A stretch of DNA of 64,000 nucleotides from Sphagnum compactum (GCA_965153455.1 OZ234493.1:27766213-27830212), one strand, 5' to 3'. Positions 1 through 35,772 are shown, counted from the first letter of the stretch. Numbers and translations are program-made. Notes: a model not told the origin generated them from the sequence alone.

Positions 1-2158
1 TCAAAGGTCTATCTTGACTAAAGGCCAATGGTTCTTCTCCCTCAACTTCTTCATGCACAACTACATTTTCTTCTTTCTCAAGATGAGGTACACCACCTAT
101 TTCCTTTGACCTTTCAATGAACACAACATCTCTACTTTTGATGATTCTCTTTGTTTTCACACACATCAAGCGATACGCTTTGGTGCCTTCGTAATATCCT
201 AAAAACACACAAGGCATGGACTTGGACTCTAATTTGGTCCTCTTCTCATCGGGGACATGTGCAAAGGCCTTACAACCAAAAACTCTCAAATGGGACACAT
301 CGGGTTTCCTACCACTCCACGCTTCTTGAGGGGTCTTGGAATCAAGAGCCTTGGTTGGACATCGATTTTTGATGTACACCGCCGTGTTCACCGCTTCGCC
401 CCAAAATTGAAGTTCCAACCCTTGTGCAAGAATCATGCTTCTTGCACATTCCATGATGGTTCTATTGGCACGTTCCGCAACACCGTTTTGTTGTGTGGAA
501 TAGGGCGCACTTGTTTGTCGTTGAATTCCACATTCCGCAAGAAATGCGTCAAACTTTTTAGACACAAATTCTCCTCCGTTGTCGGAACGCAGCACTTTGA
601 TTTTGTGACCAATTTCGTTCTCCACCAACGCCTTGTATTGTTTGAACTTTTCAAACGCTTCTCCTTTGGCCTTCAAAAGATAGACATGAGTTTTCCTTGA
701 GAAATCGTCAATGAAAGTGAGAAAGTATCGCGCTCCACCATGGGATGTAGTCTTCATTGGCCCGCACACATCGGTGTGCACAATCTCCAAAAGTTGTGAA
801 GCCCTCGTTGCTCCGTCCTTGGGAAATGATGTTCTTTGATGTTTGCCTTTGACGCATCCTTCACAAATGTGATGCAACGGCACTTCTTTCAAATTCATGC
901 CATCCACCATGGCATCTAATTCCTTAAGGCTTGCCATGTTGAGATGGCCAAGTCTTTCATGCCAAAGCATCGCACTTTCCTCCAAAGAATTTGCAATGTG
1001 TGCCATGTCCTTACGCACCTTCACATTAAGAAGGTACAAGTTCTTGTCCCTTCGTGCTTGCGCCACAACAACTCCTCGAGCGTCGTTGACCTTACAACCA
1101 TCCTTGTCAAACTCCACTTTGAAACCTTCCGAAATGAGTTTGCTCACCGAAATGAGATTATTCTTCATTTTTGGAACATGAAGAACTTGGGTGATGGTTG
1201 TGTGTGTCAATTGGCCTCCCACTTGCAATGTGGCTTTGATGCTCCCCTTGCCAATGGCCTCCAAAACGGTGTCATCGCCCATGAACACCTTCCTTGGGGA
1301 AATGCGCTCGTACGTGGTAAACCATTCTTGTTCGAATGTCATGTGTTGCGTTGCACCCGAATCGACAATCCAATCATTCGTGGTATGATCATTGGCACTC
1401 AATGCCGCAACAAACATTTGTTCGTGATCTTCACAAGCTTGATTAACTTTTTCTTTTTCATCATTTTTCTTCTTCAAACAATTTCTCACAAAATGTCCGG
1501 GTTTCTTACAATAAAAGCAAAGCTTTTCATGTGGCTTGTGAGTTTTGTTCACTAATGCGGTAGTCTCGGAATTCTCACATTCTTTTCTTTTGGACACTTC
1601 GTGAAGCAACCTTGCTACAACGAATTGAAGGTCTACATCTTTCGTGGACATGGACTCCAAGCTTGTGACTAAGTTATCAAAGGATGGAGGAAGGCTCATG
1701 AGGAGTACCATGTAAACATCTTCATCCGTAATGTTCACCTCGATGGAACGTAGTTGGTCCGCAAGGGCTTTCACCGTGTTGATGTGCACAAGCATGTCAT
1801 CTCCTTCTTGCATTTTGATGGTGAAGAATCTCCTTCGAAGGAACAACTTGTTGCCAATGGTCTTAGCTTCATGCACACCACAAAGAGCCTCCCACGCACT
1901 TCTCACATTGTCACAATATTGAATGTGTGCAAGTTGGGCATCCGTGAGATGTTCGCAAAGCAATGCAAAAGCCTTGGTCTCTTTTTCGTTGTAATCGGCC
2001 CTTGCAACTTCTTCACTTGGCAAGGTGGCACTCCCATCAACAAATTTCCAAAGCCCATGTTTGGAAAGCATCATGCGCATTTTGAACTTCCAAAGGTGAA
2101 AGTTGCCACCATCAAACTTCTCCATGACTTTCAAGGACTCCATTTGAAAAGAAGACAT
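1..2158 (-). CDS. Copia gag-pol polyprotein, partial (gag, Zn knuckle, protease, integrase)
   Basis: ATG at 2158 (MSSFQMESLK). Colinear with the 1304-aa ORFs of E and G, and appears open to the window edge. Confidence 0.85.
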   Translation of the reverse strand, partial: MSSFQMESLKVMEKFDGGNFHLWKFKMRMMLSKHGLWKFVDGSATLPSEEVARADYNEKETKAFALLCEHLTDAQLAHIQYCDNVRSAWEALCGVHEAKTIGNKLFLRRRFFTIKMQEGDDMLVHINTVKALADQLRSIEVNITDEDVYMVLLMSLPPSFDNLVTSLESMSTKDVDLQFVVARLLHEVSKRKECENSETTALVNKTHKPHEKLCFYCKKPGHFVRNCLKKKNDEKEKVNQACEDHEQMFVAALSANDHTTNDWIVDSGATQHMTFEQEWFTTYERISPRKVFMGDDTVLEAIGKGSIKATLQVGGQLTHTTITQVLHVPKMKNNLISVSKLISEGFKVEFDKDGCKVNDARGVVVAQARRDKNLYLLNVKVRKDMAHIANSLEESAMLWHERLGHLNMASLKELDAMVDGMNLKEVPLHHICEGCVKGKHQRTSFPKDGATRASQLLEIVHTDVCGPMKTTSHGGARYFLTFIDDFSRKTHVYLLKAKGEAFEKFKQYKALVENEIGHKIKVLRSDNGGEFVSKKFDAFLAECGIQRQTSAPYSTQQNGVAERANRTIMECARSMILAQGLELQFWGEAVNTAVYIKNRCPTKALDSKTPQEAWSGRKPDVSHLRVFGCKAFAHVPDEKRTKLESKSMPCVFLGYYEGTKAYRLMCVKTKRIIKSRDVVFIERSKEIGGVPHLEKEENVVVHEEVEGEEPLAFSQDRPL

Positions 2159-2814
2159 TTTGAACACAAATGCTACAACAAACACTCTCAAACTTGAAAG
2201 TTGAAGTTTTGAACAACTAAAAGAACTATCTTCCAAACACTTTCACTTGGAAAACCTTGATACTTTCAAAAACAAGTTTTTCACACTTGAAAAACTTATA
2301 ACACCTAGAAGAAATCTCTTCCACACCTCTCACTCACTTGTAAGACTATTCTCTTTGCAACCTTGCAAACTAAAAGCCTTCCCTCAAAAGGATTCTCCCT
2401 TTCAATGTTGTACAAGCAAACACTTTCAAAAAACTTAAACGAAACAAGTTTCCTAAAAACCTTACAAGAAACTTGAAAAACTTCTCTTACACCTCAAACT
2501 TCAATGTTGGAAACCTCAAAAACTTGAAGAACTCTCTTTCACACTTTTGAACTTCAAACTTGAAACTTAAAGACTTGAAGAACACTCTTCCACACTTAAG
2601 AACTTACAACACTTTGAAGAAGTCTCTTCCACACCTCCCACTCACTTGGAAAAGTTGCAAGCTCCTTGTATGCCACCACTTGGAAATGAACTCTCTCTCC
2701 CTTTGCAAACTAAGAACCTTGTCTCAAAAGGATTTTCTCCTTTTTCCTATGCAATACAAGCTCAAACCTTTCACTACTTCTTGTTCTAACACAATGTCCT
2801 TTCTCTTGCTTGGT

Positions 2815-2828
2815 GTGGGCCCATAACC
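2815..2828 (-). promoter_or_regulatory. Primer-binding site complementary to the anticodon arm of initiator tRNA-Met (half-tRNA priming)
   Basis: Minus strand reads GGTTATGGGCCCAC directly after the LTR. This is the complement of GUGGGCCCAUAACC in plant tRNAiMet. Confidence 0.9.
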
Positions 2829-3317
2829 TATTGGAAACAACTTGAATACAAGCAAGAAATGCAACACTCAAGGTTCATGAAATGGAACAATTGTATTAAC
2901 TAAAAGAAGATTACAAAGGTTGTATGCTTCAAATGCTACAATCATAAAACTATGGCTTGCAACAACTAACAAAGCTTGAAGGTTCTATGTGCACTCAACA
3001 ACCATGAAAGGAAGGAATGAAAGACAACTCAAAACCACTCCATTATATAATATCTCCTAACCCTAAGTAGCCGCCACTTAACCCTAACCTAGCCGCCACC
3101 AAACCCTAACCCTAGCCGCCGCCTAACCCTAGCCGCCACCAAACCCTAAACCTAGCCGCCGCCTAACCCTAACCCTAGCCGCCGCTTAACCCTAAGTAGT
3201 CTCCACTTCTAAACCCTAACCTAACAACTACAAGGATGTGTATACTATTCATCCTTTTGATGAATGTTTAACACATTCATCAACATTGGGAATTAGAAAC
3301 GAATAGTATTTCTAACA
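2829..3317 (-). repeat. 5' LTR of element A (489 bp, TG...TA)
   Basis: Matches the LTRs at 9402-9890 and 27782-28270. Confidence 0.95.
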
Positions 3318-5263
3318 ATCATGAAGGCACGAAAGCATATCGCTTGATGTGTGTAGAAACCAAGAAAATCGTGAAAAATAGAGATGTTGTGTTCGTTGAG
3401 AGGTCAAAAGAAGTAAGCGGTGTGCTCCATCCCAAGAAAGTAGAAAATGTTGTTGTAGAAGTTGAAGGAGAAGAACCCTTGAGCTTTAGTGAGGATACAC
3501 CGTTGAATGAAGAAACAAGGGAAGGTGTGCAAAGTGAGTGCACACCATGTTCTTCATCGGAAGAAGAATTTGTTGTTTCGAATGACGATCCATCTCATGA
3601 GCCTTCACAACGTGTCTCAAAGGAAAGACCTCAGAGGCAACGAAGAGAATGGCCTCGAGATTGGTGGATTGCTACCAAGGAGGTGGAGCGTGCCACCATT
3701 GCATTTTTGGAGGAACCCCAAAATATTGAAGAAGCATTGACATGTGAAAGTTCCAAGGAGTGGGAGTGCGCCATGCAAGAAGAATATGATTCTCTCATGG
3801 CAAACAACACATGGACTTTGGTACCACTTCCCGTTGGAAGAAAACCCGTTTCTTGCAAATGGGTGTTCAAAATCAAACAAGGTGCCAACAGGGAGGTGGA
3901 ACGCTACAAGGCCAGATTAGTGGCAAGAGGTTTTACCCAAACGTACGGAATAGATTACAACGAAACTTTTGCGCCCGTCGCAAAGTTTACATCTATTCGT
4001 TGTATTCTTGCATTGGCGGCATTGGAAGACATGGAGATCCATCAAATGGACGTGAAAACCGCATTTTTGAATGGCGATCTTGAAGAGGAGATTTACATGG
4101 AGCAACCTCAAGGGTTTGTGCACCAAGGAGGTGAACATCTTGTGTGTAAGCTTCACAAGTCCTTGTATGGTTTGAAACAATCTCCGAGGGCATGGAATCA
4201 AAAGTTAGATGCCTTTCTCAAAAGCATCGAATTTATGAAGAGTGATGCCGATCCTAGTGTGTATGTTGCACAAGTGGGAGATGTCAAGTTTTTCCTTGTG
4301 GTCTATGTGGACGACCTCATTTTGGTGTGCAACGATCAAAACAAACTTTTGCAAATCAAAGAGGAATTGAGTCAAAAGTTTGAAATGAAAGACCTCGGGG
4401 AGTTGCATTTCTTTTTGGGGATGGAAGTGGAAAGGAATCGTGATGAACGACTCTTACGCATCAATCAAATCAAATACCTGAAGGAAATATTGAAGCGTTT
4501 TGGAATGGAAGATTGTAAGCCCATTGGAGTTCCATTCGATCCCAAAATGAAGCTACGAAGGACCACGCATGGAAATGATGAATCGAAGGGATTTCCATAT
4601 CAACAAGCGGTTGGGTCCTTGATGTATGTCATGTTGTGCACACGACCCGACTTGGCATTCCCAATAAGTGTGTTGAGTCAACACATGGCCAACCCTAGCA
4701 TGGAGCATTGGATGGCCGTCAAACGAGTCTTTCGATATTTACAAGGTACATTGCAAATGAAGTTACGTTTCGGTGCAATACCATCCTAGGAAGTGCTTGG
4801 ATATTGTGATGCGGATTGGGGTGGCGATCTCGAAGATAGGAGGTCCACCACAGGGTTTGTTTTCATGATCGGAGGTGGAGCCATATCTTGGAGTAGCAAA
4901 CGACAACCTACAATAGCGTTGTCCACCACGGAGGCGGAGTACATGGCGAACACGCAAGCCACAAAAGAAGCCATATGGATAACAAAATTGATGATGGATT
5001 TAGGATACGTGGAAGAGAAAAAGGTGATGGTGATTCGATGCGACAATCAAGGTGCGATATCATTGACCAAGAATCCCACTCACCGTGCACGAACAAAACA
5101 CATTGACGTACAACATCATTTTGTTCGAGAACGAGTTGAAAATGGAGAAGTTCAATTTGAATATTGTCCAACGGAACACATGGTGGCGGATGTCCTTACC
5201 AAGGCATTATCCAAAGAACGACACCACAAATTCATAAACATGTTTGGATTAGAAACTTCATAG
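3318..5263 (+). pseudogene. Element B pol (INT C-terminus, RT, RNase H) with a nonsense mutation
   Basis: YVDD and CDADW motifs present. In-frame TAG at 4787-4789 where sister copies have AAG. Confidence 0.92.
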
Positions 5264-5271
5264 AGTGGGAG

Positions 5272-5502
5272 TGTTAGAAGTACTATTCGTTTCTAATTCC
5301 CAACGTTGATGAATGTGTTCAAAGTACTATTCGTTTCTAATGTTAATGGATGTGTTAAACATTCATCAAAAGGATGAATAGTATTGACATCCTTATAGTA
5401 GTTAGGTTAGGTTGAATAGTGGTGGCTAGGGTTAAGGTTTGGTGGCGGCTAGGGTTAGGGTTTTGCTAACGGCTAGGGTTAGGCGACGGCTAGGGTTAGG
5501 GT
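5272..5502 (+). repeat. Left part of element B 3' LTR (B-type, duplicated 5' module)
   Basis: Starts TGTTAGAAG after the PPT and ends in TSD AGGGT at 5498-5502. Same subtype as the solo LTR at 28537-29044. Confidence 0.88.
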
Positions 5503-5790
5503 TGTTAGGGTTAGGCGACGGCTAGATTTAGGGTTTGGTGGCGGCTAGGGTTAGGCGGCGGCTAGGGTTAGGGTTTGGTGGCGGCTAGGTTAGGGTTAAG
5601 TGGCGGCTACTTAGGGTTAGGAGATATTATATAATGGAGTGGTTTTGAGTTGTCTTTCATTCCTTCCTTTCATGGTTGTTGAGTGCACATAGAACCTTCA
5701 AGCTTTGTTAGTTGTTGCAAGCCATAGTTTTATGATTGTAGCATTTGAAGCATACAACCTTTGTAATCTTCTTTTAGTTAATACAACAAG

Positions 5791-8700
5791 TTGTTCCTTC
5801 GAAGGAGATTCTTCACCATCAAAATGCAAGAAGGAGATGACATGCTTGTGCACATCAACACGGTGAAAGCCCTTGCGGACCAACTACGTTCCATCGAGGT
5901 GAACATTACGGATGAAGATGTTTACATGGTACTCCTCATGAGCCTTCCTCCATCCTTTGATAACTTAGTCACAAGCTTGGAGTCCATGTCCACGAAAGAT
6001 GTAGACCTTCAATTCGTTGTAGCAAGGTTGCTTCACGAAGTGTCCAAAAGAAAAGAATGTGAGAATTCCGAGACTACCGCATTAGTGAACAAAACTCACA
6101 AGCCAAATGAGAAGCTTTGCTTTTATTGTAAGAAACCCGGACATTTTGTGAGAAATTGTTTGAAGAAGAAAAATGATGAAAAAGAAAAAGTTAATCAAGC
6201 TTGTGAAGATCACGAACAAATGTTTGTTGCGGCATTGAGTGCCAATGATCATACCACGAATGATTGGATTGTCGATTCGGGTGCAACGCAACACATGACA
6301 TTCGAACAAGAATGGTTTACCACGTACGAGCGCATTTCCCCAAGGAGGGTGTTCATGGGCGATGACACCGTTTTGGAGGCCATTGGCAAGGGGAGCATCA
6401 AAGCCACATTGCAAGTGGGAGGCCAATTGACACACACAACCATCACCCAAGTTCTTCATGTTCCAAAAATGAAGAATAATCTCATTTCGGTGAGCAAACT
6501 CATTTCGGAAGGTTTCAAAGTGGAGTTTGACAAGGATGGTTGTAAGGTCAACGATGCTCGAGGAGTTGTTGTGGCGCAAGCACGAAGGGACAAGAACTTG
6601 TACCTTCTTAATGTGAAGGTGCGTAAGGACATGGCACACATTGCAAATTCTTTGGAGGAAAGTGCGATGCTTTGGCATGAAAGACTTGGCCATCTCAACA
6701 TGGCAAGCCTTAAGGAATTAGATGCCATGGTGGATGGCATGAATTTGAAAGAAGTGCCGTTGCATCACATTTGTGAAGGATGCGTCAAAGGCAAACATCA
6801 AAGAACATCATTTCCCAAGGACGGAGCAACGAGGGCTTCACAACTTTTGGAGATTGTGCACACCGATGTGTGCGGGCCAATGAAGACTACATCCCATGGT
6901 GGAGCGCGATACATTCTCACTTTCATTGACGATTTCTCAAGGAAAACTCATGTCTATCTTTTGAAGGCCAAAGGAGAAGCGTTTGAAAAGTTCAAACAAT
7001 ACAAGGCGTTGGTGGAGAACGAAATTGGTCACAAAATCAAAGTGCTGCGTTCCGACAACGGAGGAGAATTTGTGTCTAAAAAATTTGACGCATTTCTTGC
7101 GGAATGTGGAATTCAACGACAAACAAGTGCGCCCTATTCCCCACAACAAAACGGTGTTGCGGAACGTGCCAATAGAACCATCATGGAATGTGCAAGAAGC
7201 ATGATTCTTGCACAAGGGTTGGAACTTGAATTTTGGGGCGAAGCGGTGAACACGGCGGTGTACATCAAAATCCGATGTCCAACCAAGGCTCTTGATTCCA
7301 AGACCCCTCAAGAAGCGTGGAGTGGTAGGAAACCTGATGTGTCCCATTTGAGAGTTTTTGGTTGTAAGGCCTTTGCACATGTCCCCGATGAGAAGAGGAC
7401 CAAATTAGACTCCAAGTCCATGCCTTGTGTGTTTTTAGGATATTACGAAGGCACCAAAGCGTATCGCTTGATGTGTGTGAAAACCAAGAGAATCATCAAA
7501 AGTAGAGATGTTGTGTTCATTGAAAGGTCAAAGGAAATAGGTGGTGTACCTCATCTTGAGAAAGAAGAAAATGTAGTTGTGCACGAAGAAGTTGAGGGAG
7601 AAGAACCATTGGCCTTTAGTCAAGATAGACCTTTGAGTGAAACAAGAATGGAAGGTGTGCAAAGTGAATCCACACCAAGTTCTTCATCGGAAGAGGAATT
7701 TGTTGTTTCCAATGACAACCCATCTTGTGAACCTTCACAAGATATTGCGAGCGAAAGACCTCAAAGGCAACGAAGGGAATGGCCTCGGGATTGGTGGATT
7801 GCTACCAAAGAGGTGGAGCGCGCCACCGTTGCATTTTTGGAGGAGCCCCAAAATATTGAAGAAGCATTGACATGTGAAAATTCCAAAGAGTGGGAGTGTG
7901 CGATGCGAGAAGAATATGATTCCCTCATGACAAACAACACATGGACTTTGGTACCACTTCCCGCCGGTAGGAAACCCGTTTCTTGCAAATGGGTGTTCAA
8001 AATCAAACAAGGCGCAAATGGGGAAGTGGAACGCTACAAGGCTAGATTAGTAGCAAGAGGTTTTACCCAAACCTACGGAGTGGATTACAACGAAACTTTT
8101 GCGCCGGTCGCAAAATTTGCATCTATTCGTTGTATTCTTGCATTGGCGGCCTTGGAAGACATGGAGATCCATCAAATGGACGTGAAAACCGCATTTCTCA
8201 ATGGGGAGCTTGAAGAGGAGATTTACATGGAGCAACCTCAAGGGTTCGTGCACCAAGGAGGTGAACATCTCGTGTGTAAACTTCACAAGTCCTTGTATGG
8301 TTTGAAACAATCTCCGAGGGCATGGAATCAAAAGTTAGATGCGTTTCTCAAAAGCATTGAATTTATCAAGAGTGAGGCGGATCCTAGTGTGTACGTTGCA
8401 CAAGTGGGAGATGTGAAGTTTTTCATTGTGGTCTATGTGGACGACCTCATTTTGGTGTGCAACGATCAAAACAAACTTTTACAAATCAAAGAGGAATTGA
8501 GTCAAAAGTTTGAAATGAAGGACCTCGGGGAGTTGCATTTCTTTTTGGGGATGGAGGTGGAAAGGAATCGTGATGAAAGACTCCTACGCATCAACCAAAT
8601 CAAATACCTCAAGGAAATATTGAAGCGGTTTCGAATGGAAGAATGTAAGCCCATTGGAGTTCCATTGGATCCCAAGGTGAAGTTACAAAGGAATGTGAAA

Positions 8701-9393
8701 GGAAATGATGAATCAAAGGGATTCCCATATCAACAAGCGGTTGGGTCTTTGATGTATGCCATGTTGTGCACACGACCCGACTTGGCATACCCAATAAGCG
8801 TGTTGAGTCAACACATGGCCAACCCTAACATGGAGCATTGGATGGCCGTCAAACGAATCTTTCGATATTTGCAAGGTACATTGCAAATGAAATTACAATT
8901 CGGTGGAACACCATCCAAGGAAGTTCTTGGATATTGTGATGCGGATTGGGGTGGTGATCTTGAAGATAGGAGGTCCACCACAGGGTTTGTTTTCATGATT
9001 GGAGGTGGAGCGATTTCTTGGAGTAGCAAACGACAACCCACAATAGCATTGTCCACCACGGAGGCGGAATACATGGCGAACACGCAAGCCACAAAAGAAG
9101 CCGTATGGATAACAAAATTGATGATGGATTTGGGATACATGGAGGAGAAGAAAATGATGGTGATTCGATGCGACAATCAAGGTGCGATATCATTGACCAA
9201 GAATCCCACTCACCATGCACGAACAAAACACATTGATGTACAACATCATTTTGTTCGAGAACGAGTTGAAAATGGAGAAGTTGGATTTGAATATTGTCCA
9301 ACGGAACACATGGTGGCGGATGTCCTTACTAAGGCATTATCTAAAGAACGACATCATAAGTTGATAAACATGTTCGGATTAGAAACTTCATAG
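5791..9393 (+). CDS. Element C polyprotein, N-terminally truncated but otherwise open (1200 codons)
   Basis: CX2CX4HX4C knuckle, WIVDSGA protease, integrase HHCC and DDE, RT YVDD, RNase H, in Copia order. Confidence 0.85.
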   Translation: MFLRRRFFTIKMQEGDDMLVHINTVKALADQLRSIEVNITDEDVYMVLLMSLPPSFDNLVTSLESMSTKDVDLQFVVARLLHEVSKRKECENSETTALVNKTHKPNEKLCFYCKKPGHFVRNCLKKKNDEKEKVNQACEDHEQMFVAALSANDHTTNDWIVDSGATQHMTFEQEWFTTYERISPRRVFMGDDTVLEAIGKGSIKATLQVGGQLTHTTITQVLHVPKMKNNLISVSKLISEGFKVEFDKDGCKVNDARGVVVAQARRDKNLYLLNVKVRKDMAHIANSLEESAMLWHERLGHLNMASLKELDAMVDGMNLKEVPLHHICEGCVKGKHQRTSFPKDGATRASQLLEIVHTDVCGPMKTTSHGGARYILTFIDDFSRKTHVYLLKAKGEAFEKFKQYKALVENEIGHKIKVLRSDNGGEFVSKKFDAFLAECGIQRQTSAPYSPQQNGVAERANRTIMECARSMILAQGLELEFWGEAVNTAVYIKIRCPTKALDSKTPQEAWSGRKPDVSHLRVFGCKAFAHVPDEKRTKLDSKSMPCVFLGYYEGTKAYRLMCVKTKRIIKSRDVVFIERSKEIGGVPHLEKEENVVVHEEVEGEEPLAFSQDRPLSETRMEGVQSESTPSSSSEEEFVVSNDNPSCEPSQDIASERPQRQRREWPRDWWIATKEVERATVAFLEEPQNIEEALTCENSKEWECAMREEYDSLMTNNTWTLVPLPAGRKPVSCKWVFKIKQGANGEVERYKARLVARGFTQTYGVDYNETFAPVAKFASIRCILALAALEDMEIHQMDVKTAFLNGELEEEIYMEQPQGFVHQGGEHLVCKLHKSLYGLKQSPRAWNQKLDAFLKSIEFIKSEADPSVYVAQVGDVKFFIVVYVDDLILVCNDQNKLLQIKEELSQKFEMKDLGELHFFLGMEVERNRDERLLRINQIKYLKEILKRFRMEECKPIGVPLDPKVKLQRNVKGNDESKGFPYQQAVGSLMYAMLCTRPDLAYPISVLSQHMANPNMEHWMAVKRIFRYLQGTLQMKLQFGGTPSKEVLGYCDADWGGDLEDRRSTTGFVFMIGGGAISWSSKRQPTIALSTTEAEYMANTQATKEAVWITKLMMDLGYMEEKKMMVIRCDNQGAISLTKNPTHHARTKHIDVQHHFVRERVENGEVGFEYCPTEHMVADVLTKALSKERHHKLINMFGLETS

Positions 9394-9401
9394 AGTGGGA
9401 G

Positions 9402-9890
9402 TGTTAGAAATACTATTCGTTTCTAATTCCCAATGTTGATGAATGTGTTAAACATTCATCAAAAGGATGAATAGTATACACATCCTTGTAGTTGTTAGGT
9501 TAGGGTTTAGAAGTGGAGACTACTTAGGGTTTGGCGGCGGCTAGGGTTAGGGTTAGGCGACGGCTAGATTTAGGGTTTGGTGGCGGCTAGGGTTAGGCGG
9601 CGGCTAGGGTTAGGGTTTGGTGGCGGCTAGGTTAGGGTTAAGTGGCGGCTACTTAGGGTTAGGAGATATTATATAATGGAGTGGTTTTGAGTTGTCTTTC
9701 ATTCCTTCCTTTCATGGTTGTTGAGTGCACATAGAACCTTCAAGCTTTGTTAGTTGTTGCAAGCCATAGTTTTATGATTGTAGCATTTGAAGCATACAAC
9801 CTTTGTAATCTTCTTTTAGTTAATACAATTGTTCCATTTCATGAACCTTGAGAGTTACATTTCTTGCTTGTATTCAAGTTGTTTCCAATA
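9402..9890 (+). repeat. 3' LTR of element C (489 bp)
   Basis: Follows PPT AGAGTGGGAG; reads TGTTAG...CCAATA. Confidence 0.95.
9670..9705 (+). promoter_or_regulatory. LTR core promoter: TATATAA plus initiator-like TCATTCC (predicted TSS at 9701); representative of family-1 LTRs
   Basis: TATATAA at 9670-9676 lies 31 nt upstream of the A in TCATTCC, directly downstream of the GCC/telo array. Confidence 0.65.
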
Positions 9891-10174
9891 AGGGTTTGGT
9901 GGCAGCTAGGGTTAGGGTTAAGTGGCGGCTACTTTAGGGTTAGGAGATAGTATATATTGGAGTGGTTTTGAGTGGTCTTTCATTCCTTCCTTTCATGGTT
10001 TTTTGAGTGCACATAGAACCTTCACGCTTTGTTAGTTGTTGCAAGCCATAGTTTTGTGATTGCATCATTTGAAAGCATACAACCTTTGTATTGTTCTTGT
10101 TAGTTAATACAATTGTTCCACTTCATGAACCTTGAGTGTTCCATTTCTTGCTTGTTTACAAGTTGTTTCCAATA
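9891..10174 (+). repeat. Right part of element B 3' LTR
   Basis: Resumes the array after the TSD, carries B-type variants shared with 28537-29044, and ends CCAATA. Confidence 0.9.
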
Positions 10175-12143: not shown

Positions 12144-12151
12144 CTCCCACT

Positions 12152-18969: not shown

Positions 18970-18977
18970 AGTGGGAG

Positions 18978-19449
18978 TGTTAGAAATACTATTCGTTTCT
19001 AATTCCCAATGTTGATGAATGTGTTAAACATTCATCAAAAGGATGAATAGTATACACATCCTTGTAGTTGTTAGGTTAGGGTTTAGAAGTGGAGACTACT
19101 TAGGGTTTGGCGGCGGCTAGGGTTAGGGTTAGGCGGCGGCTAGGTTTAGGGTTAGGCGGCGGCTAGGGTTAGGGTTTGGTGGCGGCTAGGTTAGGGTTAA
19201 GTGGCGGCTACTTAGGGTTAGGAGATATTATATAATGGAGTGGTTTTGAGTTGTCATTCATTCCTTCCTTTCATGGTTGTTGAGTGCACATAGAACCTTC
19301 AAGCTTTGTTAGTTGTTGCAAGCCATAGTTTTATGATTGTAGCATTTGAAGCATACAACCTTTGTAATCTTCTTCTAGTTAATACAATTGTTCCATTTCA
19401 TGAACCTTGAGTGTTGCATTTCTTGCTTGTCTTCAAGTTGTTTCCAATA
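18978..19449 (+). repeat. 3' LTR of element E (472 bp)
   Basis: TGTTAG...CCAATA after the PPT. Confidence 0.95.
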
Positions 19450-21190
19450 CAAACATCAAAGAACATCATTTCCCAAGGACGGAGGAACGAGGGGTTCACA
19501 ACTTTTGGAGATTGTGCACACCGATGTGTGCGGGCCAATGAAGACTACCTCGCATGGTGGAGCGCGATACTTTCTCACTTTCATTGACGATTTCTCAAGG
19601 AAAACTCATGTCTATCTTTTGAAGGCCAAAGGAGAAGCGTTTGAAAAGTTCAAACAATACAAGGCCTTGGTGGAGAACGAAATTCGTCACAAAATCAAAG
19701 TGCTGCGTTCCGACAACGAAGGAGAATTTGTGTCTAAGAAATTTGACGCATTTCTTGTGGAATGTGGAATTCAACGACAAACAATTGCGCCCTATTCCCC
19801 ACAACAAAACGGTGTTGCGGAACGTGCCAATAGAACCATCATGGAATGTGCCAGAAGCATGATTCTTGCACAAGGGTTGGAACTTGAATTTTGGGGCGAA
19901 GCGGTGAACACGGCGGTGTACATCAAAAATCGATGTCCAACCAAGGCTCTTGATTCCAAGACCCCTCAAGAAGCGTGGAGTGGTAGGAAACCCGATGTGT
20001 CCCATTTGAGAGTTTTTGGTTGTAAGGCCTTTGCACATGTCCCCGATGAGAAGAGGACCAAATTAGAGTCCAAGTCCATGCCTTGTGTGTTTTTAGGATA
20101 TTACGAAGGCACCAAAGCGTATCGCTTGATGTGTGTGAAAACCAAGAGAATCATCAAAAGTAGAGATGTTATGTTCATTGAAGGGTCAAAGGAAATAGGT
20201 GGTGTACCTCATCTTGAGAAAGAAGAAAATGTAGTTGTGCATGAAGAAGATGAGTGAGAAGAACCATTGGCCTTTAGTCAAGATAGACCTTTGAGTGAAA
20301 CAAGAATGGAAGGTGTGCAAAGTGAATCCACACCAAGTTCTTCATCGGAAGAGGAATTTGTTGTTTCCAATGACAACCCATCTTGTGAACCTTCACAAGA
20401 TATTGCGAGGGAAAGACCTCAAAGGCAACGAAGGGAATGGCCTCGGGATTGGTGGATTGCTACCAAAGAGGTGGAGCGCGCCACCGTTGCATTTTCGGAG
20501 GAGCCCCAAAGTATTGAAGAAGCATTGACATGTGAAAATTCCAAGGAGTGGGAGTGTGCGATGCGAGAAGAATATGATTCCCTCATGACAAACAACACAT
20601 GGACTTTGGTACCACTTCCCGCCGGTAGGAAACCCGTTTCTTGCAAATGGGTGTTCAAAATCAAACAAGGCGCAAATGGGGATGTGGAATGCTACAAGGC
20701 TAGATTAGTAGCAAGAGGTTTTACTCAAACCTACGGAGTGGATTACAACGAAACTTTTGCGCCGGTCGCAAAATTTGCATCTATTCGTTGTATTCTTGCA
20801 TTGGCGGCCTTGGAAGACATGGAGATCCATCAAATGGACGTGAAAATCGCATTTCTCAATGGCGAGCTTGAAGAGGAGATTTACATGGAGCAACCTCAAG
20901 GGTTCGTGCACCAAGGAGGTGAACATCTCGTGTGTAAGCTTCACAAGTCCTTGTATGGTTTGAAACAATCTCCGAGGGCATGGAATCAAAAGTTAGATGC
21001 GTTTCTCAAAAGCATTGAATTTATCAAGAGTGAGGCGGATCCTAGTGTGTACGTTGCACAAGTGGGAGATGTGAAGTTTTTCATTGTGGTCTATGTGGAC
21101 GACCTCATTTTGGTGTGCAACGATCAAAACAAACATTTCCAAATCAAAGAGGAATTGAGTCAAAAGTTTGAAATGAAGGACCTCGGGGAG

Positions 21191-21404
21191 TATTGGAAAC
21201 AACTTGAATACAAGCAAGAAATGCAACACTCAAGGTTCATGAAATGGAACAATTGTATTAACTAAAAGAAGATTACAAAGGTTGTATGCTTCAAATGCTA
21301 CAATCATAAAACTATGGCTTGCAACAACTAACAAAGCTTGAAGGTTCTATGTGCACTCAACAACCATGAAAGGAAGGAATTAGAAACGAATAGTATTTCT
21401 AACA
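21191..21404 (-). repeat. 3' LTR of G (214 bp)
   Basis: Family-1 LTR minus 275 bp; junction GGAAT at 21376-21380. Confidence 0.95.
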
Positions 21405-21412
21405 CTCCCACT

Positions 21413-24400
21413 CTATAAAGTTTCTAATCCGAACATGTTTATCAACTTATGATGTCGTTCTTTAGATAATGCCTTAGTAAGGACATCCGCCACCATGTGT
21501 TCCGTTGGACAATATTCAAATCCTACTTCTCCATTTTCAACTCGTTCTCGAACAAAATGATGTTGTACATCAATGTGTTTTGTTCGTGCATGGTGAGTGG
21601 GATTCTTGGTCAATGATATCACACCTTGATTGTCGCATCGAATCACCATCATCTTCTTCTCCTCCATGTATCCCAAATCCATCATCAATTTTGTTATCCA
21701 TACGGCTTCTTTTGTGGCTTGCGTGTTCGCCATGTATTCCGCCTCCGTGGTGGACAATGCTATTGTGGGTTGTCGTTTGCTACTCCAAGAAATCGCTCCA
21801 CCTCCAATCATGAAAACAAACCCTGTGGTGGACCTCCTATCTTCAAGATCACCACCCCAATCCGCATCACAATATCCAAGAACTTCCTTGGATGGTGTTC
21901 CACCAAATTGTAATTTCATTTGCAATGTACCTTGCAAATATCGAAAGATTCGTTTGACGGCCATCCAATGCTCCATGTTAGGGTTCGCCATGTGTTGACT
22001 CAACACGCTTATTGGGTATGCCAAGTCGGGTCGTGTGCACAACATGGCATACATCAAAGACCCAACCGCTTGTTGATATGGGAATCCCTTTGATTCTTCA
22101 TTTCCTTTCACATTCCTTTGTAACTTCACCTTGGGATCCAATGGAACTCCAATGGGCTTACATTCTTCCATTCGAAACCCCTTCAATATTTCCTTGAGGT
22201 ATTTGATTTGGTTGATGCGTAGGAGTCTTTCATCACGATTCCTTTCCACCTCCATCCCCAAAAAGAAATGCAACTCCCCGAGGTCCTTCATTTCAAACTT
22301 TTGACTCAATTCCTCTTTGATTTGTAAAAGTTTGTTTTGATCGTTGCACACCAAAATGAGGTCGTCCACATAGACCACAATGAAAAACTTCACATCTCCC
22401 ACTTGTGCAACGTACACACTAGGATCCGCCTCACTCTTGATAAATTCAATGCTTTTGAGAAACGCATCTAACTTTTGATTCCATACCCTCGGAGATTGTT
22501 TCAAACCATACAAGGACTTCTGAAGCTTACACACGAGATGTTCACCTCCTTGGTGCACGAACCCTTGAGGTTGCTCCATGTAAATCTCCTCTTCAAGCTC
22601 GCCATTGAGAAATGCGGTTTTCACGTCCATTTGATGGATCTCCATGTCTTCCAAGGCCGCCAATGCAAGAATACAACGAATAGATGCAAATTTTGCGACC
22701 GGCGCAAAAGTTTCGTTGTAATCCACTCCGTAGGTTTGAGTAAAACCTCTTGCTACTAATCTAGCCTTGTAGCGTTCCACTTCCCCATTTGCGCCTTGTT
22801 TGATTTTGAACACCCATTTGCAAGAAACGGGTTCCCTACCGGCGGGAAGTGGTACCAAAGTCCATGTGTTGTTTGTCATGAGGGAATCATATTCTTCTCG
22901 CATCACACACTCCCACTCCTTGGAATTTTCACATGTCAATGCTTCTTCAATATTTTGGGGCTCCTCCAAAAATGCAACGGTGGCGCGCTCCACCTCTTTG
23001 GTAGCAATCCACCAATCCCGAGGCCATTCCCTTCGTTGCCTTTGAGGTCTTTCCCTCGCAATATCTTGTGAAGGTTCACAAGATGGGTTGTCATTGGAAA
23101 CAACAAATTCCTCTTCCGATGAAGAACTTGGTGTGGATTCACTTTGCACACCTTCCATTCTTGTTTCACTCAAAGGTCTATCTTGACTAAAGGCCAATGG
23201 TTCTTCTCCCTCAACTTCTTCATGCACAACTACATTTTCTTCTTTCTCAAGATGAGGTACACCACCTATTTCCTTTGACCTTTCAATGAACACAACATCT
23301 CTACTTTTGATGATTCTCTTGGTTTTCACACACATCAAGCGATACGCTTTGGTGCCTTCGTAATATCCTAAAAACACACAAGGCATGGACTTGGACTCTA
23401 ATTTGGTCCTCTTCTCATCGGGGACATGTGCAAAGGCCTTACAACCAAAAACTCTCAAATGGGACACATCGGGTTTCCTACCACTCCACGATTCTTGAGG
23501 GGTCTTGGAATCAAGAGCCTTGGTTGGACATCGATTTTTGATGTACACCGTCGTGTTCACCGCTTCGCCCCAAAATTCAAGTTCCAACCCTTGTGCAAGA
23601 ATCATGCTTCTGGCACATTCCATGATGGTTCTATTGGCACGTTCCGCAACACCGTTTTGTTGTGGGGAATAGGGCGCACTTGTTTGTCGTTGAATTCCAC
23701 ATTCCGCAAGAAATGCGTCAAATTTCCTAGACACAAATTCTCCTCCGTTGTCGGAACGCAGCACTTTGATTTTGTGACCAATTTCGTTCTCCACCAAGGC
23801 CTTGTATAGTTTGAACTTTTCAAACGCTTCTCCTTTGGCCTTCAAAAGATAGACATGAGTTTTCCTTGAGAAATCGTCAATGAAAGTGAGAAAGTATCGC
23901 GCTCCACCATGGGATGTAGTCTTCATTGGCCCGCACACATCGGTGTGCACAATCTCCAAAAGTTGTGAAGCCCTCGTTGCTCCGTCCTTGGGAAATGATG
24001 TTCTTTGATGTTTGCCTTTGACGCATCCTTCACAAATGTGATGCAACGGCACTTCTTTCAAATTCATGCCATCCACCATGGCATCTAATTCCTTAAGGCT
24101 TGCCATGTTGAGATGGCCAAGTCTTTCATGCCAAAGCATCGCACTTTCCTCCAAAGAATTTGCAATGTGTGCCATGTCCTTACGCACCTTCACATTAAGA
24201 AGGTACAAGTTCTTGTCCCTTCGTGCTTGCGCCACAACAACTCCTCGAGCATCGTTGACCTTACAACCATCCTTGTCAAACTCCACTTTGAAACCTTCCG
24301 AAATGAGTTTGCTCACCGAAATGAGATTATTCTTCATTTTTGGAACATGAAGAACTTGGGTGATGGTTGTGTGTGTCAATTGGCCTCCCACTTGCAATGT

Positions 24401-25327
24401 GGCTTTGATGCTCCCCTTGCCAATGGCCTCCAAAACGGTGTCTTCGCCCATGAACACCCTCCTTGGGGAAATGCGTTCGTACGTGGTAAACCATTCTTGT
24501 TCGAATGTCATGTGTTGCGTTGCACCCGAATCGACAATCCAATCATTCGTGGTATGATCATTGGCACTCAATGCCGCAACAAACATTTGTTCGTGATCTT
24601 CACAAGCTTGATTAACTTTTTCTTTTTCATCATTTTTCTTCTTCAAACAATTTCTCACAAAATGTCCGGGTTTCTTACAATAAAAGCAAAGGTTCTCATT
24701 TGGCTTGTGAGTTTTGTTCACTAATGCGGTAGTCTCGGAATTCTCACATTCTTTTCTTTTGGACACTTCGTGAAGCAACCTTGCTACAACGAATTGAAGG
24801 TCTACATCTTTCATGGACATGGACTCCAAGCTTGTGACTAAGTTATCAAAGGATGGAGGAAGGCTCATGAGGAGTACCATGTAAACATCTTCATCCGTAA
24901 TGTTCACCTCGATAGAACGTAGTTGGTCCGCAAGGGCTTTCACCGTGTTGATGTGCACAAGCATGTCATCTCCTTCTTGCATTTTGATGGTGAAGAATCT
25001 CCTTCGAAGGAACAACTTGTTGCCAATGGTCTTAGCTTCATGCACACCACAAAGAGCCTCCCACGCACTTCTCACATTGTCACAATATTGAATGTGTGCA
25101 AGTTGGGCATCCGTGAGATGTTCGCAAAGCAATGCAAAAGCCTTGGTCTCTTTTTCGTTGTAATCGGCCCTTGCAACTTCTTCACTTGGCAAGGTGGCAC
25201 TCCCATCAACAAATTTCCAAAGCCCATGTTTGGAAAGCATCATGCGCATTTTGAACTTCCAAAGGTGAAAGTTGCCACCATCAAACTTCTCCATGACTTT
25301 CAAGGACTCCATTTGAAAAGAAGACAT
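21413..25327 (-). CDS. Complete Copia polyprotein of G (1304 aa)
   Basis: ATG at 25327, uninterrupted frame, all domains present. Confidence 0.95.
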   Translation of the reverse strand: MSSFQMESLKVMEKFDGGNFHLWKFKMRMMLSKHGLWKFVDGSATLPSEEVARADYNEKETKAFALLCEHLTDAQLAHIQYCDNVRSAWEALCGVHEAKTIGNKLFLRRRFFTIKMQEGDDMLVHINTVKALADQLRSIEVNITDEDVYMVLLMSLPPSFDNLVTSLESMSMKDVDLQFVVARLLHEVSKRKECENSETTALVNKTHKPNENLCFYCKKPGHFVRNCLKKKNDEKEKVNQACEDHEQMFVAALSANDHTTNDWIVDSGATQHMTFEQEWFTTYERISPRRVFMGEDTVLEAIGKGSIKATLQVGGQLTHTTITQVLHVPKMKNNLISVSKLISEGFKVEFDKDGCKVNDARGVVVAQARRDKNLYLLNVKVRKDMAHIANSLEESAMLWHERLGHLNMASLKELDAMVDGMNLKEVPLHHICEGCVKGKHQRTSFPKDGATRASQLLEIVHTDVCGPMKTTSHGGARYFLTFIDDFSRKTHVYLLKAKGEAFEKFKLYKALVENEIGHKIKVLRSDNGGEFVSRKFDAFLAECGIQRQTSAPYSPQQNGVAERANRTIMECARSMILAQGLELEFWGEAVNTTVYIKNRCPTKALDSKTPQESWSGRKPDVSHLRVFGCKAFAHVPDEKRTKLESKSMPCVFLGYYEGTKAYRLMCVKTKRIIKSRDVVFIERSKEIGGVPHLEKEENVVVHEEVEGEEPLAFSQDRPLSETRMEGVQSESTPSSSSEEEFVVSNDNPSCEPSQDIARERPQRQRREWPRDWWIATKEVERATVAFLEEPQNIEEALTCENSKEWECVMREEYDSLMTNNTWTLVPLPAGREPVSCKWVFKIKQGANGEVERYKARLVARGFTQTYGVDYNETFAPVAKFASIRCILALAALEDMEIHQMDVKTAFLNGELEEEIYMEQPQGFVHQGGEHLVCKLQKSLYGLKQSPRVWNQKLDAFLKSIEFIKSEADPSVYVAQVGDVKFFIVVYVDDLILVCNDQNKLLQIKEELSQKFEMKDLGELHFFLGMEVERNRDERLLRINQIKYLKEILKGFRMEECKPIGVPLDPKVKLQRNVKGNEESKGFPYQQAVGSLMYAMLCTRPDLAYPISVLSQHMANPNMEHWMAVKRIFRYLQGTLQMKLQFGGTPSKEVLGYCDADWGGDLEDRRSTTGFVFMIGGGAISWSSKRQPTIALSTTEAEYMANTQATKEAVWITKLMMDLGYMEEKKMMVIRCDNQGVISLTKNPTHHARTKHIDVQHHFVRERVENGEVGFEYCPTEHMVADVLTKALSKERHHKLINMFGLETL

Positions 25328-25982
25328 TTTGAACACAAATGCTACATCAAACACTCTCAAACTTGAAAGTTGAAGTTTTGAACAACTAAAAGAACTATCT
25401 TCCAAACACTTTCACTTGGAAAACCTTGATACTTTCAAAAACAAGTTTTTCACACTTGAAAAACTTACAACACCTTGAAGAAATCTCTTCCACACCTCTC
25501 ACTCACTTGTAAGACTATTCTCTTTGCAACCTTGCAAACTAAAAGCCTTCCCTCAAAAGGATTCTCCCTTTCAATGTTGTACAAGCAAACACTTTCAAAA
25601 AACTTAAACGAAACAAGTTTCCTAAAAACCTTACAAGAAACTTGAAAAACTTACTTACACCTCAAACTTCAATGTTGGAAACCTCAAAAACTTGAAGAAC
25701 TCTCTTTCACACTTTTGAATTTCAAACTTGAAACTTAAAGACTTGAAGAACACTCTTCCACACTTAAGAACTTACAACACTTTGAAGAAGTCTCTTCCAC
25801 ACCTCCCACTCACTTGGAAAAGTTGCAAGCTCCTTGTATGGCACCACTTGGAAATGAACTCTCTCTCCCTTTGCAAACTAAGAACCTTGTCTCAAAAGGA
25901 TTCTCTCCTTTTTCCTATGCAATACAAGCTCAAACCTTTCACTACTTCTTGTTCTAACACAATGTCCTTTCTCTTGCTTGGT

Positions 25983-25996
25983 GTGGGCCAATAACC
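25983..25996 (-). promoter_or_regulatory. Half-tRNAiMet PBS of G, one mismatch
   Basis: GGTTATTGGCCCAC versus consensus GGTTATGGGCCCAC. Confidence 0.85.
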
Positions 25997-26210
25997 TATT
26001 GGAAACAACTTGAATACAAGCAAGAAATGCAACACTCAAGGTTCATGAAATGGAACAATTGTATTAACTAAAAGAAGATTACAAAGGTTGTATGCTTCAA
26101 ATGCTACAATCATAAAACTATGGCTTGCAACAACTAACAAAGCTTGAAGGTTCTATGTGCACTCAACAACCATGAAAGGAAGGAATTAGAAACAAATAGT
26201 ATTTCTAACA
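25997..26210 (-). repeat. 5' LTR of G (214 bp)
   Basis: Same deletion junction, GGAAT at 26182-26186. Confidence 0.95.
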
Positions 26211-27084
26211 GGGAGTTGCATTTCTTTTTGGGGATGGAGGTGGAAAGGAATCGTGATAAAAGACTCCTACGCATCAACCAAATCAAATACCTCAAGGAAA
26301 TATTGAAGCGGTTTCGAATGGAAGAATGTAAGCCCATTGGAGTTCCATTGGATCCCAAGGTGAAGTTACAAAGGAATGTGAATGGAAATGATGAATCAAA
26401 GGGATTCCCATATCAACAAGCGGTTGGGTCTTTGATGTATGCCATGTTGTGCACACGACCCCACTTGGCATACCCAATAAGCGTGTTGAGTCAACACATG
26501 GCGAACCCTAACATGGAGCATTGGATGGCCGTCAAACGAATCTTTCGATATTTGCAAGGTATATTGCAAATGAAATTACAATTTGGTGGAACACCATCCA
26601 AGGAAGTTCTTGGATATTGTGATGCGGATTGGGGTGGTGATCTTGAAGATAGGAGGTCCACCACAGGGTTTGTTTTCATGATTGGAGGTGGAGCGATTTC
26701 TTGGAGTAGCAAACGACAACCCACAATAGCATTGTCCACCACGAAGGCGGAATACATGGCGAACACGCAAGCCACAAAAGAAGCCATATGGATAACAAAA
26801 TTGATGATGGATTTAGGATACATGGAGGAGAAGAAAATGATGGTGATTCGATGCGACAATCAAGGTGCGATATCATTGACCAAGAATCCCACTCACCATG
26901 CACGAACAAAACACATTGATGTACAACATCATTTTGTTCGAGAACGAGTTGAAAATGGAGAAGTTGGATTTGAATATTGTCCAACGGAACACATGGTGGC
27001 GGATGTCCTTACTAAGGCATTATCTAAAGAACGACATCATAAGTTGATGAACATGTTCGGATTAGAAACTTCATAGAGTGGGAG

Positions 27085-27557
27085 TGTTAGAAATATTATT
27101 CGTTTCTAATTCCCAATGTTGATGAATGTGTTAAACATTCATCAAAAGGATGAATAGTATACACATCCTTGTAGTTGTTAGGTTAGGATTTAGAAGTGGA
27201 GACTACTTAGGGTTAGGCGGCGACTAGGGTTAGGGTTGGGCGGCGGCTTGGTTTAGGGTTTGGTGGCGGCTAGGGTTAGGGTTTGGTTGCGGCTAGATCA
27301 GGGTTAAGTGGCGGCTACTTAAGGGCTAGGAGATAGTATATAATGAAGTGGTTTTGAATTGTATTTCATTCTTTCCTTTCATGGTTGTTGAGTGCACATA
27401 GAACCTTCAAGCTTTGTTAGTTGTTGCAAGCCATAGTTTTATGATTGTAGCATTTGAAGCATACAACCTTTGTAATTTTCTTTTAGTTAATACAATTGTT
27501 CCATTTCATGAACCTTGAGTGTTGCATTTCTTACTTGTTTTCAAGTTGTTTCCAATA
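27085..27557 (+). repeat. 3' LTR of F (473 bp)
   Basis: Follows the PPT; carries more substitutions than the A, C and E LTRs. Confidence 0.93.
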
Positions 27558-27781
27558 AGTGGAACGCTAGAAGGCTAGATTAGTAGCAAGAGGTTTTACC
27601 CAAACCTACGGAGTGGATTACAACGAAACTTTTGCGCCAGTCGCAAAATTTGCATCTATTCATTGTATTCTTGCATTGGCGGCCTTGGAAGCCATGGAGA
27701 TCCATCAAATGGACGTGAAAACCGCATTTCTCAATGGCGTGTTTAAAGAAGAGATTTACATGGAGCAACCTCAAGGGTTCG

Positions 27782-28270
27782 TGTTAGAAATACTATTCGT
27801 TTCTAATTCCCAATGTTGATGAATGTGTTAAACATTCATCAAAAGGATGAATAGTATACACATCCTTGTAGTTGTTAGGTTAGGGTTTAGAAGTGGAGAC
27901 TACTTAGGGTTTGGCGGCGGCTAGGGTTAGGGTTAGGCGGCGGCTAGGTTTAGGGTTTGGTGGCGGCTAGGGTTAGGCGGCGGCTAGGGTTAGGGTTTGG
28001 TGGCGGCTAGGTTAGGGTTAAGTGGCGGCTACTTAGGGTTAGGAGATATTATATAATGGAGTGATTTTGAGTTGTCTTTCATTCTTTCCTTTCATGGTTG
28101 TTGAGTGCACATAGAACCTTCAAGCTTTGTTAGTTGTTGCAAGCCATAGTTTTATGACTGTAGCATTTGAAGCATACAACCTTTGTAATCTTCTTTTAGT
28201 TAATACAATTGTTCCATTTCATGAACCTTGAGTGTTGCATTTCTTGCTTGTTTTCAAGTTGTTTCCAATA
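27782..28270 (+). mobile_element. Solo LTR I (489 bp)
   Basis: TSD GTTCG at 27777-27781 and 28271-28275, with no internal region. Confidence 0.95.
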
Positions 28271-28536
28271 GTTCGTGCACCAAGGAGGTGAACATCTCGT
28301 GTGTAAGCTTCACAAGTCCTTGTATGGTTTGAAACAATCTTCAAGGGCATGGAATCAAAAGTTAGATGCGTTTCTCAAAAGCATTGAATTTATCAAGAGT
28401 GAGGCGGATCCTAGTGTGTACGTTGTACAAGTGGGAAATGTGAAGTTTTTCATTGTGGTCTATGTGGACAACCTCATTTTGGTGTGCAACGACCAAAACA
28501 AACTTTTGCAAATGAAAAAGGAATTGAGTCAAAAGT

Positions 28537-29044
28537 TATTGGAAACAACTTGTAAACAAGCAAGAAATGGAACACTCAAGGTTCATGAAATGGAACAATT
28601 GTATTAACTAACAAGAACAATACAAAGGTTGTATGCTTTCAAATGATGCAATCACAAAACTATGGCTTGCAACAACTAACAAAGCGTGAAGGTTCTATGT
28701 GCACTCAAAAACCATGAAAGGAAGGAATGAAAGACACTCAAAACCACTCCAATATATATTATCTCCTAACCCTAAAGTAGCCGCCACTTAACCCTAACCC
28801 TAGCCGCCACCAAACCCTAACCCTAGCCGTCGCCTAACCCTAGCCGCCACCAAAACCCTAACCCTAGCCGCCACCAAACCTTAACCCTAGCCACCACTAT
28901 TCAACCTAACCTAACTACTATAAGGATGTCAATACTATTCATCCTTTTGATGAATGTTTAACACATTCATCAACATTAGAAACGAATAGTATTTCGAACA
29001 CATTCATCAACGTTGGGAATTAGAAACGAATAGTACTTCTAACA
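28537..29044 (-). mobile_element. Solo LTR J (508 bp, B-type)
   Basis: TSD AAAGT at 28532-28536 and 29045-29049. Confidence 0.95.
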
Positions 29045-29172
29045 AAAGTTTGAAATGAAAGACCTCGGGGAGTTGCATTTCTTTTTGGGGATGGAAATGG
29101 AAAGGAATCGTGATGAAAGACTCCTACGCATCAACCAAATCAAATACCTCAAGGAAATATTGAAGCGGTTTC

Positions 29173-35690: not shown

Positions 35691-35772
35691 TGCACATCCA
35701 ACACACACAAACCCTCAAGATCTCTCTCAATGCACACAAGCAATCAAACCTCTAATCATGCAACTCGCATGT

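Follow-up and report, generated by a model that had tools for sequence, protein, structure and literature searches.

Self-nesting of one Ty1/copia family at the end of a retrotransposon cluster in Sphagnum compactum

We analysed a 64,000-nt stretch of the Sphagnum compactum assembly (GCA_965153455.1 OZ234493.1:27766213-27830212), called the window below, with positions counted from its first letter. A single Ty1/copia retrotransposon family, here family 1, tiles positions 1-10174 and 11695-29172, and its copies lie nested in one another. This self-nesting exceeds simple chance, both in the window and in contigs from a relative. Positions 1-29172 are the right-hand end of a cluster that extends past the window start. 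An earlier note on this DNA had counted ten copies over about 27.5 of the first 29 kb, with none after 29172, and had proposed that the family homes to its own chromatin domain. Our mapping recovered the same ten copies, and the homing proposal is weighed below.

Copies were mapped by BLAST of the window against itself and, with a cut-off of E 1e-10, against two segments of the family as they occur in it, namely 5784-9890 and, in reverse complement, 1-3320. Ten family-1 copies, A to J, make up 27,652 bp, or 94.8%, of positions 1-29172. By coordinate arithmetic, the full-length element is 5,574 bp, with long terminal repeats (LTRs) at element positions 1-492 and 5083-5574. At the same cut-off, BLAST of the window beyond 29172 found no family-1 copy, as the earlier note had claimed, just short partial matches. 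These were 267 bp at 88% in each LTR of a different Copia at 31773-36136 (family 2), two matches of 81 bp (81%) within the family-2 LTRs, and one of 91 bp (79%). The parts of the cluster are as follows.

Copy A, 1..3320, minus strand: cut by the window start; complete 492-bp 5' LTR at 2829-3320; primer-binding site (PBS) at 2815-2828.
Copy B, 3321..5503 and 9891..10174, plus strand: older subfamily, ~91% identical to the young copies.
Copy C, 5504..9890, plus strand: internal deletion; 3' LTR at 9399-9890.
Spacer between B and D, 10175..11694, no strand: 1.5 kb that is not family 1.
Copy D, 11695..14689, minus strand: 3' LTR and interior to element position 3050, then, across a deletion junction at 14177-14179, positions 1865-1350.
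Copy E, 14687..19449, plus strand: 5'-truncated at element position 796; 3' LTR at 18975-19449; intact frame at 15055-18969.
Copy F, left part, 19450..21190, plus strand: element 2476-4217; split from the right part by G.
Copy G, 21191..26210, minus strand: complete at both ends, 5,020 bp; target-site duplication (TSD) GGGAG; both LTRs 214 bp.
Copy F, right part, 26211..27557, plus strand: element 4212-5574, including the 3' LTR.
Copy H, three remnants within 27558..29172, plus strand: element 3708-4316; truncated at 29172.
Solo LTR I, 27781..28270, plus strand: inside H; TSD GTTCG.
Solo LTR J, ~28538..29044, minus strand: inside H; older subfamily; TSD AAAGT.

The leader and polyprotein frame of A are open up to the window start, and this copy looks complete as far as it is visible. 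The first part of B holds element ~3126-5136 and the start of the 3' LTR, and the second part holds LTR positions ~214-492. In C, a 5' LTR fragment (LTR 148-430) joins element position 1468 at 5784-5786. The spacer consists of a degenerate repeat, in which a CCHC knuckle is weakly recognisable, and is 74-77% similar to a metagenome locus (L084).

The nesting order was read from LTR ends, which in family 1 are TGTTAG...CCAATA, that is, TG..TA instead of the usual TG..CA. For three insertions, both junctions could be read, each with a 5-bp TSD: G in F (GGGAG; host coordinates 4217 | 4212), I in H (GTTCG; 3934 | 3928), and J in H (AAAGT; 4194 | 4187). Four more are seen from one side, as an exact LTR end against family-1 DNA: A in B at 3320/3321, C in B at 9890/9891, E in F at 19449/19450, and F in H at 27557/27558. 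The second junction lies outside the window for A and has been deleted for E and F. In the case of C, the LTR of the host copy B resumes on both sides, and the 5' junction is lost in a chimeric LTR; the 5' LTR of C begins only at LTR position 148, within a repeat array. Later recombination between the B and C arrays is the simplest reading of this structure. Relative to their hosts, A, G, and J are inserted in the opposite orientation and C, E, F, and I in the same orientation. Thus, the earlier claim of at least seven insertions into older family members, in both orientations, stands on three two-sided and four one-sided junctions. The nesting order that was claimed with it is established from both sides for G in F and for I and J in H, and from one side for A and C in B, E in F, and F in H. 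That E entered F and F entered H is the most parsimonious order, short of proof.

All four readable TSDs in the window are 5 bp long: GGGAG, GTTCG, AAAGT, and ATTAC, the last belonging to the family-2 copy. At three rearrangement junctions (5784-5786, 14177-14179, and 14687-14689), the flanking alignments overlap by 3 nt, as expected for short-homology deletion. Copy D, at element position 1350, joins copy E, at position 796, head-to-head.

We compared the self-nesting with chance. If seven later insertions fall uniformly on the nongenic DNA of the window, the probability that all seven hit earlier family-1 DNA is 0.013 when the founders are taken at full length. The same seven-of-seven test gives p = 0.004 over the whole rest of the window and p = 0.0005 with the remnants at their present-day sizes.

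An outside sample was obtained by scanning metagenome contigs of a related organism with the 24-letter 3' end of the LTR. The sample holds at least 120 contigs and 823,944 bp, of which 259,071 bp are family-1-like, and in each contig the best long match has an identity of 81-99%. All counts given for relatives refer to the 120 contigs listed. The LTR-end pattern occurred 145 times. In 40 cases the PBS came next, marking a 5' LTR, and one sequence was too short; the other 104 flanks represent 94 distinct sites, which were classed by the DNA that they adjoin.

Directly in family-1-like DNA: 17 of 94.
Family-1-like DNA within 300 bp: 6 of 94.
Family-2-like DNA: 2 of 94.
Other repeats: 14 of 94.
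Low-copy DNA: 55 of 94.

Family-1-like DNA also lies within 1.5 kb of 8 of the 69 sites classed as other repeats or low-copy DNA. The 17-23 self flanks give binomial probabilities of 2e-7 to 2e-12 against an expectation of 4% and of 0.012 to 4e-5 against 10%, both expectations being borrowed bounds. The lower bound comes from Physcomitrium patens, where Copia elements overall make up 4.07% of the genome. Self-hits also outnumber hits to all other repeats combined (14 of 94). These figures come from a sample in which metagenome assembly disfavours nests, an exact LTR end was required, and many LTRs are old (average identity to family 1, ~88%). Nests with solo LTRs in element interiors recur in the relatives; examples are L049, where the insertion lies between host positions 2400 and 2401, and L107.

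The earlier note had named, as speaking against its proposal, an even dispersal with nesting no commoner than local transposon density predicts; measured against simple chance, we find an excess (p = 0.0005-0.013 in the window; 17-23 of 94 sites in the relatives). The proposed homing of the family to its own domain therefore survives in part. The excess of self-nesting agrees with it, whereas the 55 of 94 low-copy flanks do not. Homing would be a bias, not a rule, and it is not exclusive.

An insertion hot spot inside the element was considered and rejected, because the seven sites in the window and the 17 in relatives are spread along the element. The site in one metagenome contig (L010) lies ~5-8 bp from the A/B site, which is incompatible with a shared TSD. 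By a hand estimate, such a near-coincidence has a chance of ~1 in 5, and we dismissed it as evidence.

The copies differ widely in age. BLAST identity to a young reference is 99.2% for A, 99.0% for G, 98.5% for E, 98.4-98.8% for I, 96.4-98.1% for F, 96.8% for D, 96-98% for H, 91.4% for B, and 88% for J. In the self-comparison, the interior of D is 98.8% identical to C. Copies B and J are 92.8% alike and have in common an extra stretch of ~37 bp near the 5' end of the LTR, and so form an older subfamily. At the other extreme, the two LTRs of G are 99.5% alike over 214 bp, and the 5' LTR fragment of C matches its own 3' LTR at 283 of 283 positions. From this range of identities (88-99%), insertion at the site has gone on for a long period, and its latest events are very recent.

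Two copies retain open polyprotein frames of 1304 aa, P0001 in G (21413-25327) and P0002 in E (15055-18969). The Pfam domains of P0001 are, in order, Retrotran_gag_2, Pol_BBD, gag_pre-integrs, rve, SH3_retrovirus, and RVT_2; no Pfam domain was found at about residues 690-810, between the SH3-like domain and the reverse transcriptase (RT). With this domain order (gag, protease, integrase, and RT with RNase H), the LTR pairs, and the 5-bp TSDs, family 1 is a complete Ty1/copia element. The G and E frames differ at 43 of 3915 nt, and the differing codons (13 synonymous and 30 nonsynonymous) are close to neutral decay. Copy E has no 5' LTR, and the LTRs of G have no U3 array or TATA box. Thus, no visible copy is shown to be fully autonomous.

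A protein search with P0001 was assessed on 120 listed homologues. The named ones, all at 38-54% identity, were mostly oomycete Copia elements, together with a pseudoscorpion and bacterial-labelled metagenome entries, and no plant name was among the 120. An unnamed 811-aa protein, P0039, is 69% identical over 58% of the query, and full-length matches reach at most 54%. Identities of 38-54% are expected between deep Copia lineages, and the output held no plant references. We therefore drew no conclusion about a special kinship with oomycete Copia.

The PBS, GGTTATGGGCCCAC, lies directly 3' of the 5' LTR in A, in G (with one mismatch), and in the family-2 copy (35773-35786). Only three matches to it occur in the window, against 0.27 expected, and they cover every site that has a 5' LTR end. 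Judged by probe and primer sequences given in PMC5648532 and PMC1797187, human initiator tRNA-Met has an anticodon arm complementary to the first 13 of these 14 bases. The priming by half a tRNA that the earlier note had invoked is consistent with this match. No tRNA genes were found in the window or in the metagenome contigs, and an Rfam scan of the window returned nothing at gathering scores. We take plant initiator tRNA-Met to pair with all 14 PBS bases. Family 1 thus has a PBS of the half-tRNA-Met kind and not one for a tRNA 3' end. The REXdb paper places half-tRNA-Met PBSs in Osser, Bryco, and part of Gymco-II. From this PBS, we infer that family 1 may well belong to the Bryco lineage.

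A leader of 670 nt separates the PBS from the start codon and contains a 51-bp tandem repeat (window 2497-2618, and the matching region of other copies). In the relatives, the stretch at element ~618-900 is often absent, so leader length is variable there.

In U3, the LTRs carry an array in which a 23-bp unit, rich in telomere-like TTAGGG/TAGGGTTT, is repeated in tandem 4-8 times; the array ends immediately before the TATA box, on its upstream side. We counted 30 occurrences of the telobox motif AAACCCTA in the window, where 2.85 would be expected, and these LTRs hold 26 of them. The arrays lie at the following positions.

U3 arrays in family-1 LTRs: 3056-3195, 9524-9651, 19100-19222, and 27904-28031.
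U3 arrays in family-2 LTRs: 31930-32042 and 35943-36055.

The same organisation is seen in the relatives, where TAGGGTT is present in 108 of 112 examinable LTRs (from 145 LTR ends), 250-400 bp before the LTR end, with 88 TATA matches near -225. A literature search and passages of the P. patens satellite paper gave no mention of telobox arrays in Bryco or RLC5 LTRs, but such arrays may have been published.

Copy G has lost the same U3 stretch from both LTRs, and with it the repeat array and the TATA box. G nevertheless transposed, as its 5-bp TSD and its nearly identical LTRs indicate, so the deletion must already have been in the 3' U3 of the parent RNA, which was made from an intact promoter. 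The LTRs that G now has probably cannot drive its transcription.

The array is also found in the second Copia family.

Family-2 Copia, 31773..36136, minus strand: LTRs of 351 bp, 98.9% alike; TSD ATTAC; within gypsy remnants.

Its gag-to-integrase frame of 757 aa is 51% identical to that of family 1 (365 of 709 residues), and this copy is outside family 1 but of the same kind. The two families share the PBS, the TG..TA ends, and a stretch of ~260 bp, comprising the U3 array, the TATA box, and R, at 88%. This common stretch suggests either exchange of a module between families or strong constraint. At just 4,364 bp, the family-2 copy is missing most of RT and RNase H, so it has been internally rearranged. 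We also observed the start of an RT (RVT_2) on the plus strand at 32243-32901, inside this minus-strand copy, and a 119-bp tandem duplication at 32667-32901.

Several known systems resemble this cluster. In P. patens, RLC5 belongs to the Bryco clade and forms one peak per chromosome that coincides with the CENH3 chromatin immunoprecipitation (ChIP) peaks, so the use of RLC5/Bryco clusters as Physcomitrium centromere markers, cited in the earlier note, is published and has CENH3 support. RLC5 there includes full-length and truncated forms. Family 1 is likewise a bryophyte Ty1/copia in a dense single-family cluster that mixes young and degraded copies (full-length, deleted as in C and D, LTR-deleted as in G, and two solo LTRs), and its probable lineage is one reported to have a half-tRNA-Met primer. 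However, its polyprotein has no close named relative, with full-length matches of at most 54% among those listed, so family 1 does not appear to be RLC5 itself. P. patens also differs in its RanGAP-like host protein, which is 63% identical to the one encoded in the window, and in its Bryco TSDs, for which 4 bp is reported as the commonest length, against 5 bp here.

A paper on Sphagnum describes RLC5 clusters on every chromosome, detected with a Ceratodon element as the query and located at low recombination, and Bryco clusters are reported to mark the centromeres of Polytrichastrum; these, and the RLC5-type clusters of Ceratodon, are putative centromeres. Like those clusters, ours is made by one Copia lineage on gene-rich chromosomes with no broad pericentromere. 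They were delimited along entire chromosomes with the help of recombination or Hi-C data, whereas here one 29-kb edge is in view. Ty5 and the hemivirus group (copia and Osser) resemble family 1 in having a PBS that pairs with the anticodon arm of initiator tRNA-Met. Ty5 uses such anticodon-arm priming, and its integration is targeted to a chromatin state. The CRM chromoviruses and ATHILA, Ty3/gypsy elements of flowering plants, also nest in themselves, and their insertion shows a preference for centromeric DNA. They are of another superfamily, however, and the chromodomain-type tail of CRM is absent from this Copia in the Pfam scan.

Reviews count Bryco among the centrophilic elements. Given this published behaviour of moss Bryco/RLC5, the nest in the window is probably a centromeric or satellite RLC5-type cluster. 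For the narrower claim that the locus is a centromere, we see about equal chances on either side. The homing idea is the published model for the lineage, to which this cluster adds no more than a further family from a further bryophyte.

We favour, and hold to be somewhat probable, biased integration into the chromatin of existing copies followed by trimming. A Bryco-type Copia primed by half of initiator tRNA-Met would integrate preferentially into chromatin covering existing copies, and integration into its own copies, continued over a long period, would build the cluster. Recombination between LTRs would then reduce I and J to solo LTRs and produce the chimeric LTR of B and C, and short-homology deletions would trim the copies and give the three junctions with 3-nt overlaps. 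Several observations weigh against this. Most of the sampled insertions in relatives are dispersed, with 55 of 94 flanks in low-copy DNA. The 4% and 10% expectations behind the binomial values are borrowed, the lower one from the Copia share of P. patens. The 5-bp TSDs differ from the 4 bp commonest in P. patens Bryco; that figure comes from automated LTR calls, which in our view may misplace TG..TA ends. Genes lie just 27 kb from the edge of the nest. Finally, one side of one cluster is visible, and the 25 kb of repeats between it and the genes are without family 1, which would also fit targeting.

The dispersed insertions could instead mean that integration is near random and that copies are merely retained, through selection, in gene-poor, low-recombination islands of transposons where they are harmless. 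Such passive accumulation fits the setting of the nest, which is surrounded by remnants of gypsy elements, another Copia family, and AT-rich repeats that continue to ~54 kb, and the window probability is just 0.013 under the most generous null. However, the adjoining 25 kb are equally gene-free repeats and received no family-1 insertion. In the relatives, moreover, self-hits exceed hits to all other repeats, though one family should be a small fraction of the repeats. We therefore think passive accumulation unlikely. Another reading keeps the clustering and drops the kinetochore: a satellite or heterochromatic island, maybe seeded near an active donor. Extra satellite RLC5 clusters on some chromosomes are described in the Sphagnum paper, only 29 kb of the nest can be seen, and the near-identical copies A, C, E, and G (98.5-99.2%) adjoin one another. 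The genes 27 kb away would fit such an island, but the same paper reports that bryophyte centromeres lack broad gene-poor pericentromeres, so nearby genes are not contrary to a centromere. The old copies B (91%) and J (88%) point to hits over a long term, not to one burst. A noncentromeric local cluster thus seems quite improbable to us. That the nesting is false, with near-identical copies misjoined in assembly, we find hardly credible. Segments of >1 kb common to the copies at 98-99% can mislead assemblers, but three insertions have matching 5-bp TSDs and exact continuity of the host on both sides, each copy has private differences and subfamily markers, and similar nests occur in the independently assembled contigs of the relative.

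A more specific version of biased integration would involve the LTR itself. The telobox U3 array might be a portable module that determines in which chromatin state the copies are held, for instance through recruitment of telomere-repeat-binding proteins, and that state might be recognised by the integrase. If this were true, the elements would build a domain that attracts their own descendants. We regard this as highly doubtful.

Bryco-lineage Copia clusters are the published sequence basis of moss centromeres. The cluster dissected here shows both how such a region grows, by integration into its own copies, and how it is trimmed, by formation of solo LTRs and by short-homology deletions. It is an example at base level, with dated insertion layers, two open frames, a promoter-less copy that transposed, and an LTR module common to two families. 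Its value is that of a well-resolved case and of a probe set (the LTR end, the PBS, and the telobox array).

At the right-hand limit of the cluster, position 29172 is a break in the truncated copy H, at element position 4316, with no LTR. The earlier note had seen a sharp edge of a chromatin domain here, and the junction does not bear this out: the truncated H adjoins gypsy remnants and the sister Copia family. The features beyond it are as follows.

Gypsy remnants, RNase H at 30791-31207 and integrase at 36342-36758: split by the family-2 Copia.
AT-rich tandem arrays, 41624-42110, 44564-44841, 45318-45679, and 47959-48449: between the transposon block and the genes.
RanGAP-like leucine-rich-repeat gene, 56083-57494, minus strand: frames of 115 and 352 aa; no WPP domain.
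Cytochrome P450 gene, ~60150-63715, plus strand: multi-exon.

The best named match of the RanGAP-like open reading frame is from Ceratodon purpureus (E 5.9e-128, 61%), with the same WPP-less architecture. Identity is 62% to Marchantia, 63% to P. patens, and 97% to P0178, an unnamed protein of 465 aa. These matches point to a bryophyte host, probably a moss, and to neither of the two mosses named here.

AT-rich repeats and tandem arrays extend up to ~54 kb, and parts of them recur in the metagenome contigs at 75-92%. In a search for an orthologous locus, these contigs and the window had only repeats in common, with no unique flanking DNA. The units of the AT-rich arrays are 30 bp (~15 copies), 44 bp (two blocks, partly inverted repeats), and 50 bp. 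A unit of ~310 bp at 46073-46380 is found at 86-92% identity in nine loci, including L002, L040, L050, L063, L096, L104, L109, and L114, and is probably a short nonautonomous repeat.

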